From NCBI GenBank assembly GCA_965217705.1, contig CBDCJA010000002.1, positions 1,738,016 through 1,802,015 of the forward strand: 64,000 bases of DNA, in the 5' to 3' direction. The notes under the pieces were generated by a model that saw nothing but the letters and a program-made list of their open reading frames with translations, was not told the DNA's origin and did not search any database. Numbering within the stretch: the first letter of the stretch is position 1; every line of letters starts with the position of its first letter. Below, piece after piece: positions 9,666 to 41,571 of the stretch. This stretch comes from Dehalococcoidia bacterium (GTDB lineage: Bacteria; Chloroflexota; Dehalococcoidia; Lucifugimonadales; CATOSD01). The position numbers were made by a program, and so were the translations under genes.

Positions 9666-9710
9666 CACCCCCATCCTAACCTTCCCCCATCAAGGGGGAA
9701 GGGACTTTGG
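9666..9710 (+). repeat. repeat family A module (catcctaaCCTTCCCCC-n5-GGGGGAAGGgact hairpin)
   Basis: cacccccatcctaaccttcccccatcaagggggaagggactttgg, directly downstream of rplL. Near-identical copies at 24821-24853, 26995-27022/28155-28173 (split by an IS), 37504-37546, 38743-38782 and 41636-41685. Confidence 0.9.
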
Positions 9711-24728: not shown

Positions 24729-24853
24729 CCCCCATCCCCGTATCGAGTACGGGGCAGGCCCCACGTGTCGCCCACGCGCCGGGATTAACCAGCCCATCCC
24801 CGTATCGAGTACGGGGCAGGCTCTAACCTTCCCCCGTCGAGGGGGAAGGGACT
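24729..24853 (+). repeat. composite repeat array: family B, family B, family A
   Basis: Two copies of catCCCCGTAtcgagTACGGGGcagg (24729-24758, 24795-20) followed by ctctaaCCTTCCCCCgtcgaGGGGGAAGGgact (24821-24853). Confidence 0.9.
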
Positions 24854-27022: not shown

Positions 27023-28154
27023 ACGCGTGATGCAAATTAGGTCTTCAGCGATTGAAGAGTGTGGCGACTGCCAGGTCGGGACGTCCGAAGAGTCGATTCA
27101 GCAAGATGCCCAGGTTCATGGCGGCCACCTTGGAGGCTACACGGCTGAGCAATCCCCACTTGCTGCGAGCGCCGGGGAAGTGAAGGCCGAATACACTCTC
27201 AAGGTGGCCGTTGATGGTCTCGACCACCTGTTTCCAGCGCGAATGTTGTCGTCTCGCCGCGTGGGCCCCGGCTCCACTATAGTTTTTGGGTGTGAGCACG
27301 GTTGCCCCATAGCGTTTACGCCAATGCTTCTGCCACCATGCCCCGAAGAAGCCGTTGTCGCCAAGATAGGGTTGGGCGCTGGCCCTGCCGGCTGCCGACC
27401 TGGGCCACACAGGGCCTGTGGCTCCCACGTACTTCCTGCCATTGCTCCGGTAGAGGCTGGGAAGGTCGGAAGGTTTGTACGGCTGCGCGCGCGGATTGGC
27501 TCGCCAGCACAGAAAGCTCTCTGCAACCCAACGGTCTTCGGTACTCGCGGGCGCCAGCGTGAAGCCGGTTATCATCCCTTCGGGCGATACCCCAAGCAGA
27601 AGTTTGCAGCCGTAGTAGAAATCCCTGTCGCTCCCTCCCTTTCCGATGGCGGCGTCATCGCCAAACAGACGATGGCGCTTGCCGCGACAGCGACGCATCA
27701 AAGGCACGGGAACGCTGTCTATGCTCTGATATGCCGCGGCATGTGCTCCCAACTGCTCTGCCGCCACTGCCGACAGACCTACCACAACCCCTGCCAGGTC
27801 TCGGCTGCGCCGGTTGAAAGCGCTCTGGGTGATCATACTGGGAAAGTAGCTTCCCCAATGCTCGGCGACGTATGCCACGAACCTCCGCTCCGATTTTCCA
27901 GACCATTGAGCGCACAGCATCAAAGTCAGAACCTCGCTGTCGGAGAGCTCAGGCCGTCTGCCCGGACGGCTCGGCTTGTTCTGGGCCAAAAACCGCTTAT
28001 AGAAGTCATCGACAATCGTGTACAATGCCGTGAGGAAGGTGTTGAGGTCTAAGGTCATAGCTAGTTCTCCTTTGGTAGGGATAGGACTAGCTTATACCAT
28101 TCCTTGACGCCTTCCTAAACTTTTTTGGCCCTGCTCCTAATCTGCATCACGCGT
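27023..28154 (-). mobile_element. IS982-family insertion sequence (~1.13 kb) inserted in the loop of a family A hairpin
   Basis: Terminal inverted repeats ACGCGTGATGCAAATTAGG (27023-27041) and the reverse complement of cctaatctgcatcacgcgt (28136-28154), 18/19 match. Flanks are ...ccttcccccatcaa | IS | gtcaagggggaaggg, so the repeat-module loop is duplicated (TCAA). Confidence 0.8.
27045..28058 (-). CDS. IS982-family DDE transposase
   Basis: 337 aa. N-terminal LTALYTIVDDFYK ... LSDSEVLTLML is typical of IS982 transposases. C-terminal VETINGHLESVF. Confidence 0.75.
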   Translation of the reverse strand: MTLDLNTFLTALYTIVDDFYKRFLAQNKPSRPGRRPELSDSEVLTLMLCAQWSGKSERRFVAYVAEHWGSYFPSMITQSAFNRRSRDLAGVVVGLSAVAAEQLGAHAAAYQSIDSVPVPLMRRCRGKRHRLFGDDAAIGKGGSDRDFYYGCKLLLGVSPEGMITGFTLAPASTEDRWVAESFLCWRANPRAQPYKPSDLPSLYRSNGRKYVGATGPVWPRSAAGRASAQPYLGDNGFFGAWWQKHWRKRYGATVLTPKNYSGAGAHAARRQHSRWKQVVETINGHLESVFGLHFPGARSKWGLLSRVASKVAAMNLGILLNRLFGRPDLAVATLFNR

Positions 28155-28177: not shown

Positions 28178-29375
28178 GGATACTCTGAACAAGTCTGGTG
28201 TATTGTGGCATAGTACTATGCCATACACAAAGCAGAGATGTTTGGGGTGAAGGCACGATGGACCAGCCAACATTTGCCGACTTGGAATACGATAGCAAGA
28301 AGCGCAAGACCCGGCGGGAGATATTCCTTGAGCGCATGGACGGTCTGATCCCGTGGGAACAGTTCGCAGAACGCATCCGCCCGTTCTATCCCAGGGCAGG
28401 CCGGGGCCGGCGACCCTATGAGTTGTCTGTGATGCTGCGGATTCACTGCGTGCAGATGTTCTACAACCTCAGTGATCCTGGTATGGAGGACATGCTCTAC
28501 GAGGTCGAGTCGGTGAGACGGTTCGTAGGGTTGAGGCTGTCGGGCCCGCTCCCGGACGAGACGACGATCCTGAACTTCCGCCATCTGCTGGAAGAGCACG
28601 AGTTGGGACAGGGTCTGTTCGAGGAGATCAACCGTCATCTGGAGTCCCAGGGGCTGCGGCTTCGGGAGGGAACGATCGTGGACGCGAGCATCATCGAGGC
28701 GCCATCGTCAACGAAGAATCGTGCAGGTAAGCGAGACCCTGAGATGCGTCAGACGAAGAAGGGGAATGAGTGGCGCTTCGGGATGAAGGTACACATCGGT
28801 GCGGACGCTGAGACGGGAGTAGTACATAGCGTGACGACGACACCCGCGAACGTTCATGACGTGACGGAGGCTCACCGGCTGCTGCACGGCGGGGAGAATC
28901 GGGTGTGGGGCGATGCGGGGTATCAGGGAGTCGACAAGCGAATGGAGAATCGCGAGTTGGATGTGGACTGGCAGGTAGCGATGAGACCCGGGAGACGTCG
29001 GCAACTGGAGCCGGGAAGCTATGAGGCGCTTATGGAGAAGCGCAAGGCGTCGACCAGGGCGAAGGTGGAGCATCCGTTCCTGTACGTGAAGCGGCACTTT
29101 GGATACGCCAAGGTGCGTTACCGAGGGTTGGCAAAGAACACGCAACGACTGACGTTGCTACTGGGGATGACGAACTTGATAAGGGCGGAGCGGTACCTGG
29201 CAGCCTGACGAGGGCGAAGTGCGCCCAAGCTGGACAAACGAACGTAGATAGGCCTTAGCGGAGCCGTTTCAGGACCACAAGACCTCTATCGACACACCGT
29301 AGGAGGAAGAAACCCCTCGGACAGTCCACTTACTGTCCATCACAAACGAGATACCCTCAGTTGTTCAGAGGTTCC
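28178..29375 (+). mobile_element. IS5-family (IS5 group) insertion sequence, 1,198 bp, CTAG target duplication
   Basis: IRs GGATACTCTGAACAAG (28178-) and the reverse complement of ...cagttgttcagaggttcc (ends 29375). Both are flanked by CTAG (28174-28177, 29376-29379). Confidence 0.85.
28258..29208 (+). CDS. IS5-family transposase
   Basis: 316 aa from ATG 28258. FADLEY, LSDPGMEDMLYEVESVRRFVGL, DASIIEAPSSTKN and DAGYQG...VEHPF..VK motifs of IS5-group DDE transposases. Confidence 0.9.
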   Translation: MDQPTFADLEYDSKKRKTRREIFLERMDGLIPWEQFAERIRPFYPRAGRGRRPYELSVMLRIHCVQMFYNLSDPGMEDMLYEVESVRRFVGLRLSGPLPDETTILNFRHLLEEHELGQGLFEEINRHLESQGLRLREGTIVDASIIEAPSSTKNRAGKRDPEMRQTKKGNEWRFGMKVHIGADAETGVVHSVTTTPANVHDVTEAHRLLHGGENRVWGDAGYQGVDKRMENRELDVDWQVAMRPGRRRQLEPGSYEALMEKRKASTRAKVEHPFLYVKRHFGYAKVRYRGLAKNTQRLTLLLGMTNLIRAERYLAA

Positions 29376-29385
29376 CTAGCACCCA

Positions 29386-29737
29386 ATCCCCGTATCGGGT
29401 ACGGGGCAGGCGCTAGCCTTCACCCTGAGGGAGAGGGAACTGGCGGCCTTCATCCGCATTCTGACCTTCCCTTATCGCGGGGGAAGGGGCTTTGGGGGCG
29501 GAAAATCGCGAAATCTGTCTCATTTTGTTTCATTTTGTCTCGCCCCGTAGCTGGGAGTGTCGCCGGTTTGCGACGGATTGAAACGCTGGCGAGACATATT
29601 TGGGCAGGAAAGTTACAAATTGTGACAGGAATGAGACAGGCGGGCCGGGGCGCCAGCGGGTGCGTTTTCATGCCCGTGACCGTATCGAGTACGGGGCAGG
29701 CTCCGGCCTTCGCCCGTCGAAGGGGGAGGGCCTCCGG
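29386..29737 (+). repeat. mosaic of family B and degenerate family A modules
   Basis: B copies at 29386-29410 and 29673-29700. A-variants at 29411-29443 (ccttcaccctgagggagagggaa), 29461-29495 and 29701-29737. Confidence 0.8.
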
Positions 29738-30016: not shown

Positions 30017-33000
30017 TTATTCCTCCGGCTCGTCGGCGTACTGGTTGTAGCCGAGGCCGCGCACGTGGGGTTCGTTGTGCAGCAGCAGGCGCAGTCGTGT
30101 CAGTTCGTCGGCGTCCCAGCCCATGGCCTCGGCTACGGCCTCGTCCCAGAGTCGGCGGACCTCGCATTCGCCGTCGCGGAACTGGGGGACGATCATGTCC
30201 TTGGTGCGCTGCCAGCAGTCGGCGAGGATGGAAAGGATGCGAGTGTCCTTGACGTCAGGAATTCTTATGGTGGAAACCCCTGCCGGATTGAAAAAGGGGA
30301 AGACCAGTGTTCTGCCTGCGTTTCGCATGAGTTGCAGCCGGCCGGGCGTCGAGTTGATGAATACTGCTGCCCCTTTTGCCTCAGTTCCCGATAGGCCCGT
30401 GACCGGTAACCATCCACCCCCCACGTACTGCTCATCATTGGCAACGGCGGTTAGGCGTGCCGTGCTGCTATTCTGCCCCATGGTAATCAGCAGGTGTCCA
30501 GCCTTCTGCATTAGCTTGGATGACTCTGGATAAATGCCACCATTCAAAGCGAGATCAGCTTCGTTACGCTGTTTGGGAATCCAGCGCTCATCCGGCGTAC
30601 TCATGATTGACTGCTGACCATCTGCGCCTTTGGACATCACCACCGAAAAGCTTCCCAAGTCGTGGGGTTTTGCGCGCTCGAAGGAACCATACAGGACTTG
30701 AAGAGTCGCGTGTATGGACAGATCAGAAACATTGCTTATGCGCAACAGTTCTGAACTGCTTGAACATCTTGCTGCAGCCTCAGCGAGCGCATACGAACGC
30801 CAAATTGCGGGTGTCCAGTCGCCCTGCTCCATACGGCCAGATGGCCAGTACGACACTTCGCCCCATCCGTTCGCCATGAGCCCTTCTTCAGAGCACTCCA
30901 GCAGGCAGCGATGAAAGTCGGCGACCTCGTTATCATCGACTGGCATCCTATCTATGTTCACGAACCGCGTTGGCGGATTAGGACCGTCATGCCGACGCAT
31001 TACGACGATACTCTCATTGAGGCCGGTGTTCTGGCTCAAATTTACGTTGCCCGGTTCGTGGCAACTGAGCACTGTGTGGATGTGAAACCGTTGAGCGAGT
31101 ACACGTCGCTTTCGCAGGGCGGAAGGCGCGGTGAGTGCGATGGTCGGGTTGATCATTGTTAGAATCCCATCCGACCGATCTACACAGTGGTCCGCAAGGC
31201 CGACGAATAGCGGTTCTATTGCGTTCTTGTCTGCAAACCCCATCAAGCTGTGGTCGGCCTGTGTGAGCTTCTGCTCCATTAGGTCAGCACGGTCACGCAG
31301 TGCCTTTTGTGTCTCCGTGGGGAACTTTTCGCCCATGTTTCCACGGTTTGTGAATGGCGGATTCATTATCACGACACGCGCGTTCCGCACTGCATCTACC
31401 GCGTCCTCGAGTTCCACGTCAGTGGATGCTTGCCATGTCGCTCGCGAGGCGATGGCATCGTCGGCTAGATCAAGTTCGTCCGGCCTCGAGACGACAGACT
31501 TCTGGCCCAGCAGCTCGACGGTTCCCACAGCCACGCTGCTGGGGTTGTCTCTGTGGGGGCCATACGGCATCTGGTGAAGTCCCATTCTGCGGTAACTCAC
31601 CCGTTGGTTGCCAGCGGTTAGTTGGGACGCGGCAAGCTGTAGGGAGACGGGGTTTATGTCCAAACCCTTCAAGACCTCCTCGACCGCTAGTTTCTGGAGC
31701 GCAGTCAGTTGCTCGTCTCCAGCCCCACAGTCGCGGGCTCTTCGCTTCATATCGGCGAGCATAGCGGCCAACAGGGTGCCGCTCCCACATGCCAGATCGA
31801 CCGTCTTGTGGGTTCGCCACACTCGCGGGTCGGACCAGTCGAGGTCGCCGCAGACGTCCAATGTCAGTCGGGCGGCCAAGGACGCCGCTACCGGGCGAGT
31901 GAAGAATGCGCCGTCCGACACCTGGTTTCCCATGACGCGGTTGAACAGCGGCCCGGCGTGGTCCGCCCCCATGTCGGCGTAGGTCTCGGCAATACGTTCA
32001 GCCTCAGCCGCGAGGTGATGCAGGGCGCGTTCGAGGCCTGCGAGCCTTCCAGTGTCTTCAACGGCCTCGACGGCTTCGAGTGCCGGTTCAAGTACAGGAC
32101 GGAAATCGTGTCGCAGAATGCGCCCCCACTCGCGGTTCACGGTTCGGACGACGTTGACCTCGTTTTTGATGGTGGACAGGTCGCTGATGCCCGGCAGCCA
32201 GCCGCCGTTGCTAATGCGCTGATGCAACATTGCAGCGTTCATCATCAGAAGTGCGGCAATCGTACAACCGTCGGCCTGTTTCTTGTCGGTCTCTTTGAGT
32301 TTGTCCAGTCCGAAGTGGCGGTTCAGCGGGGACAGCAGCCCGTCGGCGCGCAAATGATGGGCCGCCTCGCTGACACTCGACTCCAGAATGTTCAGATCAC
32401 GCATCACGCGGTTTTCGCTCAGGCCGGACTTCGTCAGAAGGTTCATCTTAATAGCATGGCCGTGGTCTTCCAGGCCGCTAAGCTTGAGCATGAGCTGGCC
32501 CGATTCCTCAGCTCGCTCCCGGGCGGTCTTGCGGCGCCTGCGCTGACGGGCGGGCGGTACGCGCACGCCGCCCTCGCCGGTGTTAATCATCTTGCGAGCC
32601 TTCGCTTTGGTCTTCAGAATGTTGACCACGCCGCGGGCCTCGCCAGCTTGAGGCTTGTCGCGGGAAACGGTGTCACTGCGTAGCTCGACGCTTCCGTCGT
32701 CGTTCATCTTGCCGGTAACCACTTGAGCAGGTTCGCGAGGCTGGTACTCCGGCGCGCCTGGGTCGGCGGCGCCTAGCAGGTCTCCCCCAAGCTGTTTGAA
32801 GTGGTCACCACGCTGGTCGTACAGCCCGATCTGAGCAGGCTCAGTGGTTGTTAACCCGGGCGGGCCTCCTGGTATCGGCTCCGTAACAACGTCCGTAATG
32901 CGACGAAATTCCCTGGCGAGTGTGCTCCTCCCATCGAGCACACGCTCCACTGCCTCAACAGCTTCGCCGGGGGCACCGTCGTGCTGGCGGTACTGGATAC

Positions 33001-35176
33001 GGCGGTCTTCCCCGGTGGCGACGGCTACTATGGTGCGCTCCACGGGCGGGGGCTTGGGTATGTAGAGGTACAGGAGGTCCTCGAGGTTGTCCTCGATACG
33101 CTGGTCGTGAGCACGCAGCGCGAGGAGTATCTGACCCAGCTCCTGCCACCCTTCTTCCGGACCGCTGCTGCTGAGCCAGCTTTCGGGGTCTGCGGTGGGC
33201 GATATGAGTATGGGGCAGACGATATAGCCGAGTTTTTTGCCGGGGGAGGTGCGCATCGCGCGCCCGACGGCCTGAATGACGTCGATTGGGCTCTTGCGCT
33301 CTTCGAGGAAGGCAACCGCGCTCAGGGACGGCGAGTCCGTGCCTTCTCCGAAGATGCCCACGTTGATGATGCCGTGGGGGTTAGCGGTGTCCGCTTCGGC
33401 AAGCCGGTTCTTGGCGATCTCGCGGGCGGCGGCGTTGCTTGAAGCGTCCAGGTGTTCGAGACTGTAGTTGGCCAGGGGCTGCCCGTTGGCGTTCTCGTCC
33501 AGCCACCTGGATACCCATTTCTTGACCCTATCAGTCTGGAGGTCGGACGCCATGTTCTTCGACTTGTCCACGGTGTTCATGAAGGCAATGCAGGACTTTA
33601 TGTCCACTTCTTCGCCCTGCGTGCCGCCACCCATCGTGAGGGCGAACGCCAGTCCCCGCAGGTAATCGGTGGTCGTCAGCTTGCGGCGGCCCTTGCTTTG
33701 TGTGTTCTTGGCGAGTAGGTTGGCGGCTTTAAACGCCTCGCGGTCGTTGATGGCCATCGCGATTATGCGGTAGTCGGACAGCCAGCCGTTGCGGACGGCT
33801 TCCAGGTAGCTCTTGCGGTACAGCTCGACCCCGAAGGTGGACTCGTCGTCCATCGAGCGGACAATCCAATCGGGATTGCCGGTGGCCGGCCTGCCGCCGT
33901 ATGTGCGCGGCGTAGCCGTTTGATAGATGCGGTAGGTTGCGGGAAATCTACGACTGTCGTGGCAGACCGTAAAGTCTCGAAGACGCCTCTCTTCGGAGGT
34001 TGCCTTGGCAGACGCCGACTTTTTTCGCCTTAAACCGGCGGTTCTGTGCGCTTCGTCGGCAATCAGGACGTGCGCCTTGCCACCGACGTTCAGTAGGGCT
34101 TCGGATACCCTGTCGCTGCTCTGGTAGGTGCCTATGAGGACCTTGATTCCCTTGTCGAGGACGCCCTGACGCATCCAGGCGACAATCTCGCCTGCGTCTG
34201 TGGTGACCCTGCCCTTCACTTCGGATGCGCTGAAATTGCTGTTGTCGGCGGTCGGGTCCTTCGCGGTGTTGCGGGTGCCTTCTTTCGAGGGGGCGTATCC
34301 GGCGGTAGCGTCGGAGCAGACCGCGAGCACGTCCAGTGGAACGGTGGCATGCTGGAGGTACTCCCGTCTTATCTGGGCGACGAGTGCGATTGAAGGACAC
34401 AGAACGATGGACAGTTCGCCTGGGGGCGTCAACTCCTCAATGATGCGCAGGGATATTCGGGTCTTGCCGGTACCGCAAGGCAAAATGATTCTGCCGCGAG
34501 CTTCACCGACCGGCAGCCCTCCGCTGTCATAGTTCTCATGCTCTCTGAGAATGCGGACGCTGTTGGCGACCGCTTCGTTCTGCATGCAGGACTTGGTCTG
34601 AATGCGTTCTTCGCTGTTGGGGTTAAGCTGGCAGTGTTCGCATTCTTCGTAAGCGGCGTTAGCTTGTTGCTGCTGATGAAGGTCGTTAGTGACGTTTACG
34701 ACCTTGATGGGCTTTTCGCTCATGGACGCCGACTGACTCGCGCCACTGGCTAAGGCGCCGTCTCCGTTGGTGACGATCCAGCGTTCGGTCCAGAAATCAC
34801 CAGAGGACGCGGCGGCGAACTTGGCAACTTCTATGTTACTGATGGAAGAGCCGTGACCGTACTCATCAAGCTGGCGCGACTTGCATTGTATTGCTAGGTA
34901 CTTCCCATCGCTTCGGCGAATTGCCACAACATCAATCCCCACGTCAAGCCGCGTTGTGTCGGGGAAATGAGCTTCGCGGTCCGGCCACTCGTCCCAGCGC
35001 CAGCACCTCTCGATGTCCCACTCTTTGATGTGCGGAGCAGCCTCGTCGGTAACGACCTCAAGCCAATCGCCGTCGGTCTCTTGTGGATTCATTTCTGCGG
35101 CCTTTTGGATTGCCGCAGCGATGATTGCGTTGCCATTGTTGTGATTCATGGGAGTGCTCGTCAACCGGTCGTGCAT
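30017..35176 (-). CDS. Type ISP-like single-polypeptide restriction-modification/defence enzyme (Mrr-type nuclease + SF2 DEAH helicase + N6-adenine DNA methyltransferase + putative target-recognition domain)
   Basis: 1,719-aa uninterrupted ORF. Nuclease DVGIDVVA-x10-AIQCK (aa 78-99, nt 34880-34945). Walker A CGTGKT (aa 234-239, nt 34460-34477). DEAH (aa 374-377, nt 34046-34057). QTATP (aa 419-423). Motif VI QAVGRAMR (aa 635-642, nt 33251-33274). MTase FFTRPVAASL, motif I VDLACGSG (aa 1126-1133, nt 31778-31801) and motif IV NPPF (aa 1272-1275, nt 31352-31363). Confidence 0.8.
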   Translation of the reverse strand: MHDRLTSTPMNHNNGNAIIAAAIQKAAEMNPQETDGDWLEVVTDEAAPHIKEWDIERCWRWDEWPDREAHFPDTTRLDVGIDVVAIRRSDGKYLAIQCKSRQLDEYGHGSSISNIEVAKFAAASSGDFWTERWIVTNGDGALASGASQSASMSEKPIKVVNVTNDLHQQQQANAAYEECEHCQLNPNSEERIQTKSCMQNEAVANSVRILREHENYDSGGLPVGEARGRIILPCGTGKTRISLRIIEELTPPGELSIVLCPSIALVAQIRREYLQHATVPLDVLAVCSDATAGYAPSKEGTRNTAKDPTADNSNFSASEVKGRVTTDAGEIVAWMRQGVLDKGIKVLIGTYQSSDRVSEALLNVGGKAHVLIADEAHRTAGLRRKKSASAKATSEERRLRDFTVCHDSRRFPATYRIYQTATPRTYGGRPATGNPDWIVRSMDDESTFGVELYRKSYLEAVRNGWLSDYRIIAMAINDREAFKAANLLAKNTQSKGRRKLTTTDYLRGLAFALTMGGGTQGEEVDIKSCIAFMNTVDKSKNMASDLQTDRVKKWVSRWLDENANGQPLANYSLEHLDASSNAAAREIAKNRLAEADTANPHGIINVGIFGEGTDSPSLSAVAFLEERKSPIDVIQAVGRAMRTSPGKKLGYIVCPILISPTADPESWLSSSGPEEGWQELGQILLALRAHDQRIEDNLEDLLYLYIPKPPPVERTIVAVATGEDRRIQYRQHDGAPGEAVEAVERVLDGRSTLAREFRRITDVVTEPIPGGPPGLTTTEPAQIGLYDQRGDHFKQLGGDLLGAADPGAPEYQPREPAQVVTGKMNDDGSVELRSDTVSRDKPQAGEARGVVNILKTKAKARKMINTGEGGVRVPPARQRRRRKTARERAEESGQLMLKLSGLEDHGHAIKMNLLTKSGLSENRVMRDLNILESSVSEAAHHLRADGLLSPLNRHFGLDKLKETDKKQADGCTIAALLMMNAAMLHQRISNGGWLPGISDLSTIKNEVNVVRTVNREWGRILRHDFRPVLEPALEAVEAVEDTGRLAGLERALHHLAAEAERIAETYADMGADHAGPLFNRVMGNQVSDGAFFTRPVAASLAARLTLDVCGDLDWSDPRVWRTHKTVDLACGSGTLLAAMLADMKRRARDCGAGDEQLTALQKLAVEEVLKGLDINPVSLQLAASQLTAGNQRVSYRRMGLHQMPYGPHRDNPSSVAVGTVELLGQKSVVSRPDELDLADDAIASRATWQASTDVELEDAVDAVRNARVVIMNPPFTNRGNMGEKFPTETQKALRDRADLMEQKLTQADHSLMGFADKNAIEPLFVGLADHCVDRSDGILTMINPTIALTAPSALRKRRVLAQRFHIHTVLSCHEPGNVNLSQNTGLNESIVVMRRHDGPNPPTRFVNIDRMPVDDNEVADFHRCLLECSEEGLMANGWGEVSYWPSGRMEQGDWTPAIWRSYALAEAAARCSSSSELLRISNVSDLSIHATLQVLYGSFERAKPHDLGSFSVVMSKGADGQQSIMSTPDERWIPKQRNEADLALNGGIYPESSKLMQKAGHLLITMGQNSSTARLTAVANDEQYVGGGWLPVTGLSGTEAKGAAVFINSTPGRLQLMRNAGRTLVFPFFNPAGVSTIRIPDVKDTRILSILADCWQRTKDMIVPQFRDGECEVRRLWDEAVAEAMGWDADELTRLRLLLHNEPHVRGLGYNQYADEPEE

Positions 35177-35340
35177 GTTGTACAGAGCTAGGTGGAGCCC
35201 TCAGGAGAGTGCAAGAGGTTGCCATTGAATGCCGGAATTGTAGCGATGGGACAACGGCGGCCAAAGGCGAGTGAGGGCGCGCTTTCGACAGAATCGGCGA
35301 GGCACGCTTGCGAAGGCGATGGTTGAGGTTGGGCGGGGGC

Positions 35341-35372: not shown

Positions 35373-35601
35373 GGTGGAGCGGGCGCGTGATGACGCGGAG
35401 TGCGCGGGGTCGGGATGACGGTGGCGGTTGTGTGAGCGATGGCCTGGATGGATGAAGCGCGGCCTCCCCTGCCCTTGGGTTCCCCCTCCTCGTTTCCACG
35501 GGGACAAGCTTCGCGGGAATGACGAAAGAGATGGGGCCGGAATGGCTGATGCCAAGGGGCGCGGGGCGGCGTGGACTGAGGGAATACGGGTGTGAGCCCC
35601 A

Positions 35602-35762
35602 GCGGGTGGGTTGCAAACCCGCCCCTACAGGGTGTCGGGGGAAGGCGGCGTTGACCCTCATCCATCCCTTCGGCAGGCTCAGGGCGGGCTCTGGCGTTGG
35701 CACGCTCGGAGGGGAGGGACTGGCGGGCAGGCATGAAACCTGCCTCTATAGCGTGGTGGGGG
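35602..35762 (+). repeat. two family D modules (gcgggcggg-n-cccgcccctacag) plus a cccttcggcaggctcagggcggg module
   Basis: 35602-35634 and 35723-35762. Other D copies at 23949, 36223-36293 (tandem), 39949, 41577 and 42425. The ggcaggctcagggc module recurs at 49128-49152. Confidence 0.85.
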
Positions 35763-35852
35763 AAGGCGGCGCTTTCACACACTTAACGTTACGCTTGCAG
35801 TCGCGCACTGAGCTTCTTGCAGCGACGCTAGACATTGTTCCACAATAGGTCA

Positions 35853-35957
35853 ATGCGAAGCAGGCACCGGCAGACGCTCGAACGCATGCGCACCCGACCG
35901 ACGCCGGCGGACATCAGGTGGACTGAGATTGCGTTCCTATCGGAGGCGCTGAGTAAT
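35853..35957 (+). pseudogene. hicA: hicA toxin remnant (N-terminal ~34 codons only)
   Basis: MRSRHRQTLERMRTRPTPADIRWTEIAFLSEAL matches the N-terminal third of HicA (K.R.TL..IF..P....I.W.EI..L...LG). The rest of the fold is missing and the frame runs into hicB. Confidence 0.55.
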
Positions 35958-36198
35958 GTTGGAGTACAAGGGTTACGTGGGCACGGTCGCCTACGACGAT
36001 GTAGCGGAAGTGCTCTATGCCAGGGTAACTAGCAGTGGTCCGTACTCTGTCGCAGAGGCAGAGGCGACCGACGTTGAGGGGATAAAGAGGGAGTTCCGCA
36101 AGTCTATCGATTTGTACCTTGCTTCATGCGCCGAGGACGGCGTGGAGCCGGCGCCGCCGACCGGGGTGCCTGTCGAGCCCCAAACGACTGCTGGGTAG
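35956..36198 (+). CDS. hicB: HicB-family antitoxin, N-terminal domain only (no DNA-binding RHH tail)
   Basis: MLEYKGYVGTVAYDD...EGIKREFRKSIDLYLASCAEDGVEP is the HicB (COG4226-type) core. The ORF ends after 80 aa, just before a family D repeat. Confidence 0.7.
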   Translation: MLEYKGYVGTVAYDDVAEVLYARVTSSGPYSVAEAEATDVEGIKREFRKSIDLYLASCAEDGVEPAPPTGVPVEPQTTAG

Positions 36199-36284
36199 CC
36201 AGGTCCTGCCGAGCTGGAGCTCGTCACAGACCGCCCTTACAGGGTGGTGGGGAAGGGACCGGCGGGCGGGTCACAGACCCGCCC

Positions 36285-37346
36285 CTACAGCTGGGATGGG
36301 TGGACCCACTGGGCGGTGTCGGAGGACTGGTAGATGGCGATGATTACGCGGAGGACGCTTTCGGAGAAGTGGATGTCCATCATGGGTTGGCGGTTTTCGA
36401 GGATGCCGTCTATGAAGTCGGCGGCCGCGCCGTTGAAGCTCTCCAGCCAGTTCATGGGCAACTGGAATGAGACGGTCTCGGCTCCGCGGTGCAGGACGAG
36501 CGGGGGAAGGTCGAGCATCTCTCCGGTGCAGCGGGTGACCCACAGCACGCCTTCCGATCCGATAATCTCCATGAACTCGTCGGCGGCGTAGTAGGACGTC
36601 CTGATGGGCATGTGGCGCGCGCTGGCGTACTCGATGGAGGCGAGGGTGTCGCGGCCGGCGTACTTCCAGGTCGCGGAGGCAGGCAGCTCCATGAGGAAGT
36701 CGTCGTCTGAGCGCGTGATGATCGCGGACACCTTCTCGACGTCTCCGCCCCACCAGATGGCGGTCGCCACTTTGTGCCAGCCGTCGTCGTAGATCATGCC
36801 GCCCAGGTTGCGATCGGGGTCTTGCCGCCATGTGTACGCGCCTTCCGTAAAGGAAATGGGGCTTTTGCGGATGTCGCCCCTGAGCGTGCGGATGCGGACC
36901 AGCGACAGTTCACCGATGGCGCCATCCTCTATCAGCTCGCGCGCCTTGACGATTGGCGGGTAGTACAGGAAGTTTTCCGTGGTCCTGTAGAACGTGGACG
37001 CGCGGCCGGCGGCCTCTGCCATGCGGCGTATGTCCTGGATCGAGCCGGCGGCCGGTTTCTGGCAAGAGACGTGTTTGCCTGCCTCGAGGCCGGCGATGGA
37101 CTGGTCGGGGTGCAGGAAGGTCGGCGTCAGGAGTTCCACGGCGTCGATGCGGTCGTCGGCCAGGACGTCGTCGTAGCTGGTGTATATGCGCGGCGATATT
37201 CCCCACTCTCTGGCGCGCAGCTCGGCGCGCTCCGGCGCCGGGTCGCACAGCGCCGCGACCTCGCACCGGTCGTGCGCCAGGTAGCCGGGCGCGTTGAGCT
37301 GGGAGATGGTGCCGCAGCCGACTATGGCGAGGCGTACTTTGTCCAT
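36285..37346 (-). CDS. Gfo/Idh/MocA-family oxidoreductase
   Basis: ATG at 37346. VRLAIVGCGTIS Rossmann start and EKP-like CQKP motif. The track ORF N-terminal extension reads through repeat modules. Confidence 0.85.
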   Translation of the reverse strand: MDKVRLAIVGCGTISQLNAPGYLAHDRCEVAALCDPAPERAELRAREWGISPRIYTSYDDVLADDRIDAVELLTPTFLHPDQSIAGLEAGKHVSCQKPAAGSIQDIRRMAEAAGRASTFYRTTENFLYYPPIVKARELIEDGAIGELSLVRIRTLRGDIRKSPISFTEGAYTWRQDPDRNLGGMIYDDGWHKVATAIWWGGDVEKVSAIITRSDDDFLMELPASATWKYAGRDTLASIEYASARHMPIRTSYYAADEFMEIIGSEGVLWVTRCTGEMLDLPPLVLHRGAETVSFQLPMNWLESFNGAAADFIDGILENRQPMMDIHFSESVLRVIIAIYQSSDTAQWVHPSQL

Positions 37347-37556
37347 GGTTGGGTCTCTCTCAGCGGTTTTAGATTCCTCGGCTGCGCTCGGAATGACAGG
37401 GGCGGCGGGCGGGAAGGGGCTGCGGACGGCCCCCGCCCCTGGCTTCCCGCTTTCGCGGGAATGACGAGAGGGGCGAGGGGAAGGGACTGCGGCGGGCGGC
37501 GCGGTCACCCCCATCCTAACCTTCCCCCGTCGAGGGGGAAGGGACTAGGCACGCCC

Positions 37557-38700: not shown

Positions 38701-38782
38701 GTCGGTTGGTCAGTTGGTCAGTTTGTCAGGGGTTGGTGGGTTGCCCCCATCCTAACCTTCCCCCTGCGAGGGGGAAGGGACT
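38701..38782 (+). repeat. family E heptamer array followed by a family A module
   Basis: gtcggtt ggtcagtt ggtcagtt tgtcagg, then gcccccatcctaaccttccccctgcgagggggaagggact. Confidence 0.85.
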
Positions 38783-40318: not shown

Positions 40319-41571
40319 GCGCCAACGCGGGAGCGGCGGACGAACGCCGGGGCGGTGTCACTTCGCGGCGCGAGGACGAGAGGGCGCTGGAGATACTGGC
40401 GCGGCTCGGCGCGCGACCGGCGGCTCCGTTCCACGAGCGGGGAGTCGCCGAGAGCGTGGAGGGCACGCTGCGGGAGAGCGGCCTGGAGCATAGGCGCGAC
40501 GAGTTCGGCAACGTGCTGGCGCGATACGCCAGCCCCGCAAAGGAGCACGGGCGGCGGCCCATCGCGTTCGTGGCTCACATGGACCATCCCGGCTTCGAGA
40601 TAATCGAGGGGTCGGGGCGGCGCTACGTGGCGCGGGCGCTCGGCGGCGTGCCGGCGGCGTCGCTGGGCAAGCCGACGCCGGCGCTGGCGTTGCTGCCCGA
40701 CGGGCGGCGCGTGCCGTGCGAGCTTACACCCTACGACGGCGCGGAGCGAGGCGGTTCGGACCGGCTTGTGGTCGCGACGCTGGCGGAGGAAGCCGAGTTG
40801 GCGCCGCCGGTGCCGGTGGTGTTCGACCTGCCGGACTTCGAGCTGGACGGCGACACGATTCGCATGAGGGCGCTTGACGACCTCGCGGGCTGCGCGAGCA
40901 TCCTGGCGGCGATGGAGCGGCTGGCGGCCGAGGGGGCGCGCGCCGATGTGTTCGCGGTGTTCACACGCGGCGAGGAGGGCGGCCTGTTCGGTGCGCGGCT
41001 GATGGCGCAGGCGGGCACGCTGCCAGGAGACACCGTGGTGGTGTCGATCGAGTCCAGCCCGGTCATTCCGGGCGTGGCGCAGGGCCGGGGTCCGGTCATC
41101 CGCACGGGCGACGCCGCAAGCACGTTCGACGGACGCGCGGAGCAGGCGCTGATCGCCGCGAGGCAGCGCATCCTGGAGCGCACGCCGGAGTTCCGGTGCC
41201 AGCGGCAGCTCATGAGCGGCGGCACCTGCGAGGCGACGGCGTTCGCGATGTACGGGTACAGCGTGACGGGGATCGCCTTCCCGCTGGGCAACTACCACAA
41301 CGCGACTACGGACCTGCGCGACCCCGATGGGGGCGTGGGCGCGGAGTACATCGCGCTGGCCGACTTCCTGGGGGGCGTGGAGCTGATAGCCGAGGGGATG
41401 CGGGGATCCGGCGGAGCGGCTGCCGAGCGGGGGCTGCCCGACGTGGGGCAGGACGTGCGCGAACGGATGACGGCGACGGCGCGGGAGTGGGCAGGCGCGC
41501 CGTCACCCCCATCCCCGTATCGAGTACGGGGCAGGCTCAGTCCCTTCCCCCGTCGAGGGGGAAGGGACTGA
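40315..41571 (+). CDS. M42/M20-type metallopeptidase (FrvX-like aminopeptidase)
   Basis: FVAHMDHPGF, DDLAGCA and TRGEEGGLFGA motifs. TTG start was chosen by frame and coupling. The C-terminal ~25 codons read into family B/A repeats. Confidence 0.7.
   Translation: MSANAGAADERRGGVTSRREDERALEILARLGARPAAPFHERGVAESVEGTLRESGLEHRRDEFGNVLARYASPAKEHGRRPIAFVAHMDHPGFEIIEGSGRRYVARALGGVPAASLGKPTPALALLPDGRRVPCELTPYDGAERGGSDRLVVATLAEEAELAPPVPVVFDLPDFELDGDTIRMRALDDLAGCASILAAMERLAAEGARADVFAVFTRGEEGGLFGARLMAQAGTLPGDTVVVSIESSPVIPGVAQGRGPVIRTGDAASTFDGRAEQALIAARQRILERTPEFRCQRQLMSGGTCEATAFAMYGYSVTGIAFPLGNYHNATTDLRDPDGGVGAEYIALADFLGGVELIAEGMRGSGGAAAERGLPDVGQDVRERMTATAREWAGAPSPPSPYRVRGRLSPFPRRGGRD

Follow-up and report, generated by a model that had tools for sequence, protein, structure and literature searches.

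This locus raises the question of whether one long gene can hold a complete restriction-modification (R-M) system, with nuclease, ATP-driven motor, methyltransferase (MTase) and target-recognition domain (TRD) fused in a single chain. The gene lies in a 64,000-nucleotide stretch of DNA from a Dehalococcoidia bacterium, here named the window (positions 1,738,016 to 1,802,015 of contig CBDCJA010000002.1, assembly GCA_965217705.1). A preliminary description of the window, made from the sequence alone, regarded the gene as encoding a Type ISP-like enzyme. Our results favor that interpretation: the N-terminal half is homologous to the Type ISP enzymes LlaBIII and LlaGI, the C-terminal half models as an MTase with a TRD, and no conserved partner was found in the window or in most relatives. 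We put at roughly 0.78 the probability that the gene encodes a functional, stand-alone, single-polypeptide, ATP-dependent R-M enzyme of the Type ISP-like kind, whose enzymatic activity we infer.

30017..35176, minus strand: whole gene for the predicted single-polypeptide Type ISP-like R-M enzyme, 1,719 aa, ATG start, stop codon at 30017-30019 (from the list of open reading frames and the translation)

The preliminary description had claimed one uninterrupted open reading frame (ORF) on the minus strand with motifs at named residues, and the ORF list, the translation and the motif positions agree with it. The 5,160-nt ORF is read through without internal stops, and all ten of the quoted motifs are found at those residues of the 1,719-aa window protein. 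Full-length homologues, 65-77% identical, keep every catalytic motif, and the ORF and its motif set are therefore not due to chance. Residues D78, D82, Q97 and K99 and the motifs GTGKT, DEAH, TATP, QAVGRAMR, DxACGSG, FxTRP and NPPF are invariant in the 36-46 homologues aligned. The catalytic motifs appear to be under purifying selection.

The nuclease-motor half (aa 1 to ~708) contains the following features, the short motifs being placed by motif reading.

34667..35014, minus strand: Mrr-type PD-(D/E)xK nuclease, aa 55-170 (Pfam Mrr_cat_2)
34922-34945, minus strand: nuclease motif DVGIDVVA, aa 78-85
34880-34894, minus strand: nuclease motif AIQCK, aa 95-99
33053..34585, minus strand: superfamily 2 (SF2) helicase-like ATPase/translocase, N-core and C-core, aa ~198-708 (Pfam and PDB matches)
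34460-34477, minus strand: Walker A motif CGTGKT, aa 234-239
34046-34057, minus strand: DEAH, aa 374-377
33908-33922, minus strand: motif III QTATP, aa 419-423
33251-33274, minus strand: motif VI QAVGRAMR, aa 635-642

The candidate catalytic residues of the nuclease (D78, D82, Q97 and K99) are invariant across 36 homologues, and helicase motifs I, II, III and VI are all present in the window protein and invariant across the family alignment. The Pfam comparison that the preliminary description had proposed as a check recovered Mrr_cat_2 (1.6e-12, above the gathering score), ResIII at aa 198-423 (8e-13) and Helicase_C at aa 563-643 (2e-4, just short of the gathering score). When all PDB chains were searched with phmmer, LlaBIII (4xqk) was matched at 1.1e-44 over aa 75-708, its nuclease aligning from aa 75 of the window protein, and LlaGI (5ffj) at 5.4e-43; no other noteworthy match was obtained. 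A profile made from 36 homologues improved the Type ISP enzyme match to 2.4e-60 (hmmsearch against PDB). The LlaBIII-like protein of plasmid pUC109C, which served as lactococcal comparator for hhalign, aligned over aa 28-699 with a probability of 100% (602 columns, 30% identity). Two PADLOC profiles were also matched, REase_MTase_IIG (1,646 positions) at 4e-87, over aa 56-699 only (profile positions 45-648), and REase_MTase_I at 2e-46. Judged by these alignments, the N-terminal ~700 aa are homologous to the Type ISP enzymes LlaBIII and LlaGI. The first 700 residues are thus ordinary for such enzymes, and it is the other 1,000 that existing sequence models fail to recognize.

The MTase-TRD half (aa ~1091-1719) was delimited by motif reading and by AlphaFold2 (AF2) models, whose confidence is given as the predicted local distance difference test (pLDDT) and the predicted template modeling score (pTM).

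30992..31906, minus strand: gamma-class N6-adenine DNA MTase, aa ~1091-1395 (motif order and Foldseek of the AF2 model)
31892-31906, minus strand: MTase motif X, FFTRP, aa 1091-1095 (motif reading)
31778-31801, minus strand: MTase motif I, VDLACGSG, aa 1126-1133 (motif reading)
31649-31663, minus strand: MTase motif II-like LDINP (motif reading)
31352-31363, minus strand: MTase motif IV, NPPF, aa 1272-1275 (motif reading)
31397-31621, minus strand: conserved MTase insert modeled with low confidence, aa 1186-1260 (low pLDDT)
30020..30991, minus strand: predicted TRD, aa ~1396-1719, with a conserved helical tail at aa 1650-1719 (AF2 and Foldseek)

Gamma-class N6-adenine methyltransferases have their motifs in the order X-I-IV, as seen here, and the MTase motifs are invariant in 46 homologues. 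Distant family members (28-33% identity) score above the Pfam thresholds for Mrr_cat_2, ResIII, Helicase_C, N6_Mtase and Eco57I. No Pfam family was matched by the aa 1186-1260 insert. The model of aa 700-1719 (1,020 residues), made with 45 homologues as alignment, had a pLDDT of 80-96 over the last ~340 residues and low values at 762-813, 877-926 and 1186-1260. Its Foldseek matches in PDB were solely DNA adenine methyltransferases with recognition domains, namely BpuSI (3s1s; 4e-14, 843 columns), the BREX proteins PglX/BrxX (8c45 and 9ewz; 4e-13 to 6e-12), CamA (7lni; 1.7e-11, template modeling score of 0.65 on the target), LlaBIII (4xqk; 4.5e-9, 880 columns), M.BseCI and HsdM proteins (3lkd and 2okc), all with E <= 1e-8. 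Sequence identity in the BpuSI, PglX and CamA matches was just 9-14%.

When aa 1395-1719 were modeled alone (pLDDT 85.7, pTM 0.86), the Foldseek matches included BpuSI (1.2e-4, probability 1.0), PglX (0.05), M.TaqI (0.07-0.4) and the HsdS subunit of EcoR124I (1.1), and the ten best PDB matches were all proteins bearing recognition domains. The TRD core of LlaGI and LlaBIII has a fold common to M.TaqI, Type I TRDs and BpuSI (PMC4872093). According to these models, the C-terminal ~1,000 aa form a gamma-class N6-adenine MTase followed by a TRD, and this half was resolved by structure prediction with Foldseek and not by sequence comparison. The last ~320 residues had been described as unrecognized and as a possibly novel specificity domain. 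That view stands as far as sequence divergence is concerned, but the predicted fold is of the TRD type seen in BpuSI, M.TaqI and HsdS, and so neither unique to this gene nor a non-DNA-binding fold.

A further argument for a specificity function came from the sister locus L024 (OZ245405.1), in a metagenome-assembled genome (MAG) of Dehalococcoidia, which is syntenic with the window on both sides of the gene and 88-95% identical in nucleotide sequence over the flanks.

30227..31729, minus strand: swapped specificity cassette, aa 1150-1650 (comparison with L024)

Between the two copies, aa 500-750 show an amino acid identity of 1.00, with synonymous differences among identical residues of 0.01, and aa 1650-1719 an identity of 0.96 with differences of 0.09. 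In aa 1150-1650 the identity falls to 0.50-0.63 and the synonymous differences are saturated (0.57); window positions 30367-31320 have no blastn match in L024, though the sequence on either side matches at 85-95% identity. Because synonymous divergence jumps from 0.01 to 0.57, this segment was replaced via recombination with a diverged family member rather than by local fast evolution. From this comparison, aa ~1150-1650 (the C-terminal part of the MTase and the TRD) appear to be swapped like a cassette, as expected of a specificity determinant, with natural boundaries at conserved anchors around aa 1050-1110 and 1650-1710. The GC content at third codon positions (GC3) is 0.62 in the cassette, the lowest in the gene, against 0.886 in the tail. 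Among 70 full-length relatives, aa 1290-1650 form the least conserved block (mean 55% against 67-79% elsewhere); the TRD is the part that varies most and recombines in what is a very large family. LlaGI and LlaBIII similarly share >95% similarity in their first three domains, and their recognition units have diverged (PMC3553950, PMC4872093). No near-identical donor of the TRD cassette was found, the best identity being 67%, in a search whose results were mostly ORF fragments and tell little of intact proteins.

Two other observations concern this pair of genes. The nuclease end (aa 1-250, 34427-35176) is also mosaic relative to the sister genome, with synonymous differences of 0.35 against 0.01-0.14 in mid-gene, which suggests a second possible recombination tract. 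In the L024 copy the frame changes at about aa 365 (L024:9060-9130), between ...ALLSTG and GQARVLIADEAH..., through either pseudogenization or an assembly indel.

The region joining the two halves had been claimed as a divergent spacer, and comparison with compact relatives of 1,468-1,499 aa bore this out.

32408..33052, minus strand: insertion specific to the clade, between the motor and the putative helical coupler, aa ~709-923 (comparison with compact relatives, AF2)
32738-32893, minus strand: disordered linker, aa 762-813 (AF2 pLDDT <50)
32504-32551, minus strand: conserved basic patch ARQRRRRKTARERAEE, aa 876-891 (motif reading)
31907..32407, minus strand: all-alpha region, aa ~924-1090 (consecutive AF2 helices at model residues 225-386)

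The window protein has ~250 residues at aa ~705-958 and the compact relatives ~45-85, making the region ~170-210 aa longer through an expansion, specific to the lineage, between the motor and the helical region. The insertion consists of two small beta-hairpin/helix elements, a variable disordered linker and the conserved basic patch; the hairpin elements have a pLDDT of 58-82, and values at aa 762-813 and 877-926 are <50. The least conserved and gap-rich stretch is aa 751-810, with a column conservation of 0.41-0.48. No Pfam or PADLOC family was matched by aa 700-959. At a guess, the insertion could serve as a longer tether or as an extra DNA contact. Column conservation in the all-alpha region (aa ~924-1090) is 0.77-0.97. 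In the model this region would correspond to the coupler together with the helical subdomain at the N-terminus of the MTase, the equivalence to the LlaGI coupler being drawn from position only.

A working scheme for the window enzyme can be proposed by analogy with LlaGI and LlaBIII, for which an asymmetric site, one-strand methylation, translocation and cleavage upon collision have been described (PMC3553950, PMC4666363, PMC7049714). The MTase and TRD would clamp an asymmetric DNA target, and one adenine would be methylated using S-adenosylmethionine, marking the host DNA as self. At an unmethylated target the SF2 motor would instead hydrolyze ATP, leave the site and translocate downstream, and upon collision of convergent enzymes the N-terminal Mrr nuclease would make a double-strand break. 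The single TRD of the window enzyme would likewise predict an asymmetric, non-bipartite target.

In PDB and literature searches, LlaGI and LlaBIII, which are close lactococcal homologues, were the only solved or studied Type ISP enzymes that came up. The window enzyme fits the testable Type ISP architecture: like these two, it is a single chain in which an Mrr nuclease is followed by the SF2 N-core and C-core, a predicted helical region, a gamma-class N6-adenine MTase and a TRD. The nuclease-motor half is ~30% identical to theirs, and in both groups a TRD-containing segment is exchanged between otherwise near-identical relatives. On the other hand, the window protein is longer (1,719 aa against ~1,570 aa), and its clade has a motor-coupler stretch longer than that of the compact relatives, with a disordered linker and basic patch, as well as a conserved ~75-aa insert between MTase motifs II and IV. 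Moreover, the window gene is chromosomal, in an uncultured high-GC member of the Dehalococcoidia, and not on a lactococcal plasmid, and some of its relatives carry a 97-aa tail and a DUF7689 gene. Type ISP enzymes are defined by architecture and mechanism and not by homology of the MTase-TRD sequence. Since the MTase-TRD half has no detectable sequence homology to LlaGI or LlaBIII, the window clade lies outside their subfamily; the long linker and the optional tail and DUF7689 cassette of some relatives set it apart as well.

The compact relatives (P0226, P0199 and P0242) are homologous to the window protein in both halves, with 27-33% identity over aa 25-711 and 929-1706. They match Pfam Mrr_cat_2, ResIII, Helicase_C and N6_Mtase, and some of them Eco57I or MmeI_Mtase. 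They differ in that most of aa 705-958 is missing and in that their MTase reaches the Pfam thresholds, unlike that of the window protein. When P0226, a remote member, was compared with the lactococcal enzyme, the N-terminal half was 31% identical, while the C-terminal half aligned only around MTase motif I (E 8e-4). The engine module is therefore common to this family and the lactococcal enzymes, while the MTase-TRD lineage can no longer be connected to theirs by sequence. The three-subunit Type I R-M systems (HsdR, HsdM, HsdS) also combine an SF2 motor and PD-(D/E)xK nuclease with a gamma-class N6-adenine MTase and an HsdS-type TRD; in the window enzyme all these functions are fused in one chain.

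Several results weigh against a functional Type ISP-like enzyme. The MTase-TRD half gave no match to LlaGI, LlaBIII or any other solved structure at E<=10 in phmmer and family-profile hmmsearch comparisons with PDB, and hhalign aligned nothing of the pUC109C LlaBIII-like protein beyond aa ~700, in agreement with the divergence that the preliminary description had ascribed to the C-terminal domain. The window protein's own Pfam MTase matches are sub-threshold (MTS 6e-4, Eco57I 0.095), so that the reading of this half relies on motifs, predicted structure and remote relatives. The aa 700-1719 model is moderate (mean pLDDT 68.5, pTM 0.58), from a shallow alignment of sequences 64-76% identical, and the TRD fold matches other than BpuSI are weak (E 0.05-1). 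Neither the motor-coupler insertion nor the aa 1186-1260 insert has an equivalent in the solved enzymes, and both could alter the coupling between domains. Finally, 8 of the best 80 related loci (~10%) are disrupted, including the nearest relative L024, and 37 of 84 loci carry an additional tail and DUF7689 gene, leaving a slight chance that function depends on a partner that the window copy has lost.

The fold matches of the C-terminal half raise the alternative of an MTase-centered enzyme like those of Type IIG/IIL or BREX PglX, working without long-range translocation, in which the helicase remodels or the nuclease is vestigial. BpuSI (Type IIG) and PglX/BrxX (BREX) are indeed the best structures for this half, ahead of LlaBIII, the MTase-TRD half has no detectable sequence similarity to LlaGI/LlaBIII, and the NCBIfam BREX_2 PglX model gave a weak match (6.5e-5, far under the cut-off). 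However, BpuSI, PglX/BrxX and CamA share the MTase and TRD fold and none has an SF2 motor: BpuSI cleaves close to its site and its N-terminal nuclease is of another kind, PglX is part of a six-gene BREX operon and CamA is a solitary methyltransferase. A Type IIG enzyme would have no nucleoside triphosphate-dependent motor, whereas a complete SF2 ATPase lies here between nuclease and MTase. The brxA/B/C, pglX, pglZ and brxL operon of BREX has no equivalent among the neighbors, the PglX score being 20.8 bits against a cut-off of 400, and no BREX or other partner genes were seen near the window gene or its relatives. The nuclease-motor half is orthologous in kind to that of LlaBIII/LlaGI, with all nuclease and ATPase motifs invariant, and a BpuSI-like fold is no argument against a Type ISP enzyme. 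We consider this alternative improbable.

The tail and DUF7689 gene bear on a second alternative, namely that the enzyme is a component of a defense system of two or more parts, whose full form includes both and of which the window copy is incomplete or altered. When the ORFs flanking the enzyme gene were clustered all-against-all over 84 loci, namely the window and 83 related ones, a single neighbor recurred. This is a DUF7689 protein of ~150-180 aa (domain confirmed at 5e-33 and 4e-35), the start of whose gene and the 3' end of the enzyme gene overlap; this cassette aside, no family recurs in more than nine loci.

L002:15029-15761 and L063:13119-13893: examples of the tail plus DUF7689 cassette, found in 35 other related loci besides

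The 97-aa C-terminal extension and the DUF7689 gene co-occur perfectly (both in 37/84 loci, neither in 47/84, only one in none), as a two-part system would have it. Neither was detected by tblastn in the whole window, and the window copy is of the short form, like its closest relatives, and ends where other short forms end. Nevertheless, the 47 loci without the cassette mostly keep long intact ORFs, with motifs invariant among the aligned homologues, and short and long forms are intermixed in the family tree. Homologues of the tail also occur as free-standing ORFs of ~110 aa in unrelated contexts, for instance beside a Cas9-Cas1-Cas2 locus in L086, which fits an accessory or hitch-hiking cassette, and neither the tail nor DUF7689 had a PADLOC or PDB match. 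A dependence on these partners is thus very improbable.

Among the best 80 related loci, the broken copies carry frameshifts (L024, at about aa 365, L050 and L068) or in-frame stops (L021, L031, L037, L056 and L082), and on long contigs many C-terminal MTase-TRD fragments, 420-880 aa in length, are annotated as proteins of their own. Together with two insertion sequence (IS) elements 0.8 kb downstream, this would fit a relic, the window copy having been acquired horizontally and being now in decay or inactive. Broken ORFs in related genomes had been named beforehand as an argument against the enzyme; they do occur in these eight loci, and not in the window copy, which is uninterrupted over 5,160 nt, keeps every invariant catalytic residue and ends with the other short-form members, the IS elements lying outside the gene. 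A relic is extremely improbable, and the disrupted relatives look like the ordinary turnover expected of defense genes. Membership in BREX, DISARM or Dnd systems was rejected, as NCBIfam matches were far under the cut-offs and the gene context was missing.

The stand-alone Type ISP-like enzyme is therefore the reading we retain, and its relatives form a large family. With one genome scanned per GTDB species, 411 species genomes encoded a relative; the best 80 of them are full-length or nearly so, with 58-80% identity, and come from at least eight phyla. With aa 700-1719 as query against 1.84 billion representative proteins, 1,810 clusters (50% identity) were matched at E<=1e-3 and 358 at E<=1e-30. 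Record titles, available for the best 80 loci, name Dehalococcoidia and other Chloroflexota, Caldilineaceae, several gammaproteobacterial orders, Gemmatimonadota, Rhodothermales, Candidatus Poribacteria, Candidatus Entotheonella, Pedosphaera, Cyanobacteria and sponge-named candidate genera (Poriferihabitans, Porisulfidus). Judging by these titles, the family is carried mostly by bacterial symbionts of marine sponges. Several bin labels (RHO, CAR) presumably denote sponge-metagenome bins, given the sponge species named in PMC8163846, in which the labels themselves were not found.

In a neighbor-joining tree the phyla are interleaved: the window protein branches with a single Dehalococcoidia copy, next with proteins of Verrucomicrobiota, Gammaproteobacteria, Rhodothermales and Gemmatimonadota before most of the Dehalococcoidia. 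Because of this interleaving, and because GC3 is 0.71 in the enzyme gene against 0.78-0.93 in seven host genes, repeated transfer between phyla is indicated. The overall GC content is likewise lower, 0.598 in the gene against 0.647 in the rest of the window, as had been claimed from inspection. An enrichment of R-M genes in sponge symbionts and their lateral transfer among them were previously reported in aggregate only (PMC8163846); this family provides a concrete, traceable case. A limited literature search found no description of the enzyme family. Two MAG assemblies each contain two copies (L043 with L048, and L011 with L072), and in one Dehalococcoidia MAG an ORF of ~2,400 aa (L043:3-7262), with repeated fibronectin- or cadherin-like 'TATWTAP...' segments, directly precedes the family member on its upstream side.

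The window gene thus represents a large uncharacterized branch (411 species genomes, 1,810 MTase-TRD clusters), useful and apparently widespread though not a new principle. Because the branch keeps the engine but combines it with a different MTase-TRD and a longer linker, it amounts to a natural experiment on the coupling between target recognition and a translocating nuclease. Engineering the specificity of Type ISP enzymes has been regarded as an unaccomplished challenge (PMC4872093), and the cassette anchors at about aa 1050-1110 and 1650-1710 could guide it. It is tempting, though doubtful, to go further and regard the clade as a distinct subtype, in which a LlaGI-type Mrr-motor is joined by a new basic-patch linker to an MTase-TRD of a different lineage, circulating among unrelated phyla of sponge microbiomes as a recombining cassette gene tied to that habitat, with the optional tail and DUF7689 as a new regulatory or addiction partner. 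If so, the coupling of recognition to the motor could differ mechanistically from that of LlaGI and LlaBIII.

Within 8 kb on either side, the neighbors encode two DDE transposases, a class IV aminotransferase, a GFO/IDH/MocA oxidoreductase, a beta-lactamase-family protein, a squalene/phytoene synthase and a PAP2-type protein (the last by synteny with L001). No separate M, S or C subunit genes, including hsdM and hsdS, were found within this distance, in line with the claim that the enzyme has no such partners. An IS cluster had also been noted, and corresponds to two transposase genes downstream.

27045-28058, minus strand: transposase gene, weak DDE_Tnp_1_3 match (Pfam)
28198-29208, plus strand: IS5-type transposase gene, DUF772 and DDE_Tnp_1 (1e-30, Pfam)

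Both IS are lacking in L024, where the distance from the aminotransferase region to the enzyme gene is 565 bp (L024:13374-13939); the two were inserted recently and do not belong to the R-M system. Truncation of the enzyme by an IS was considered and rejected, the stop codon being at the same place as in other short forms and in IS-free L024. A hicAB relic had been proposed beside the gene and was not supported, as the upstream ORFs 35835-36032 and 35956-36198 (plus strand) matched nothing in Pfam (E<=1) or NCBIfam (E<=10). The site between the oxidoreductase and aminotransferase genes is common to the window and L024; its downstream side is common to L001, and its upstream side to L041, where the flanks are 83-88% identical and the allele just 62%. 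These comparisons suggest a chromosomal site long occupied, with allelic turnover, in this Dehalococcoidia lineage.

The intergenic region upstream of the enzyme gene is unusually long (~1.1 kb) and includes a possible promoter.

35237..35264, minus strand: possible sigma-70-like promoter TTGGCC-16-TACAAT, ~60 nt upstream of the ATG (weak, from a consensus scan)
29390-29425 / 29680-29715 and 35599-35650 / 35720-35771 / 36231-36290: dispersed direct repeats
9680-9702, 24827-24849, 37520-37542, 38756-38778 and 41543-41565: copies of a hairpin like repetitive extragenic palindromic (REP) elements

The promoter consensus scan gave three sites against 1.8 +/- 1.3 expected, and promoter and terminator counts were both at chance level. 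The direct repeats, in the intergenic regions on both sides of the enzyme gene, are 27-49 nt long with 66-86% identity and may be elements similar to miniature inverted-repeat transposable elements. The REP-like hairpin, CCTTCCCCC-N5-GGGGGAAGG, is a palindrome with five copies at gene ends, where shuffled sequences would be expected to have none. It belongs to an element of ~45 nt that has a counterpart of 96-98% identity in another Dehalococcoidia MAG (L022). Translation of this element in different frames accounts for the 'PSPSTGEG' and 'PPSRGKGL' peptides that recur at the ends of many mechanically called ORFs.

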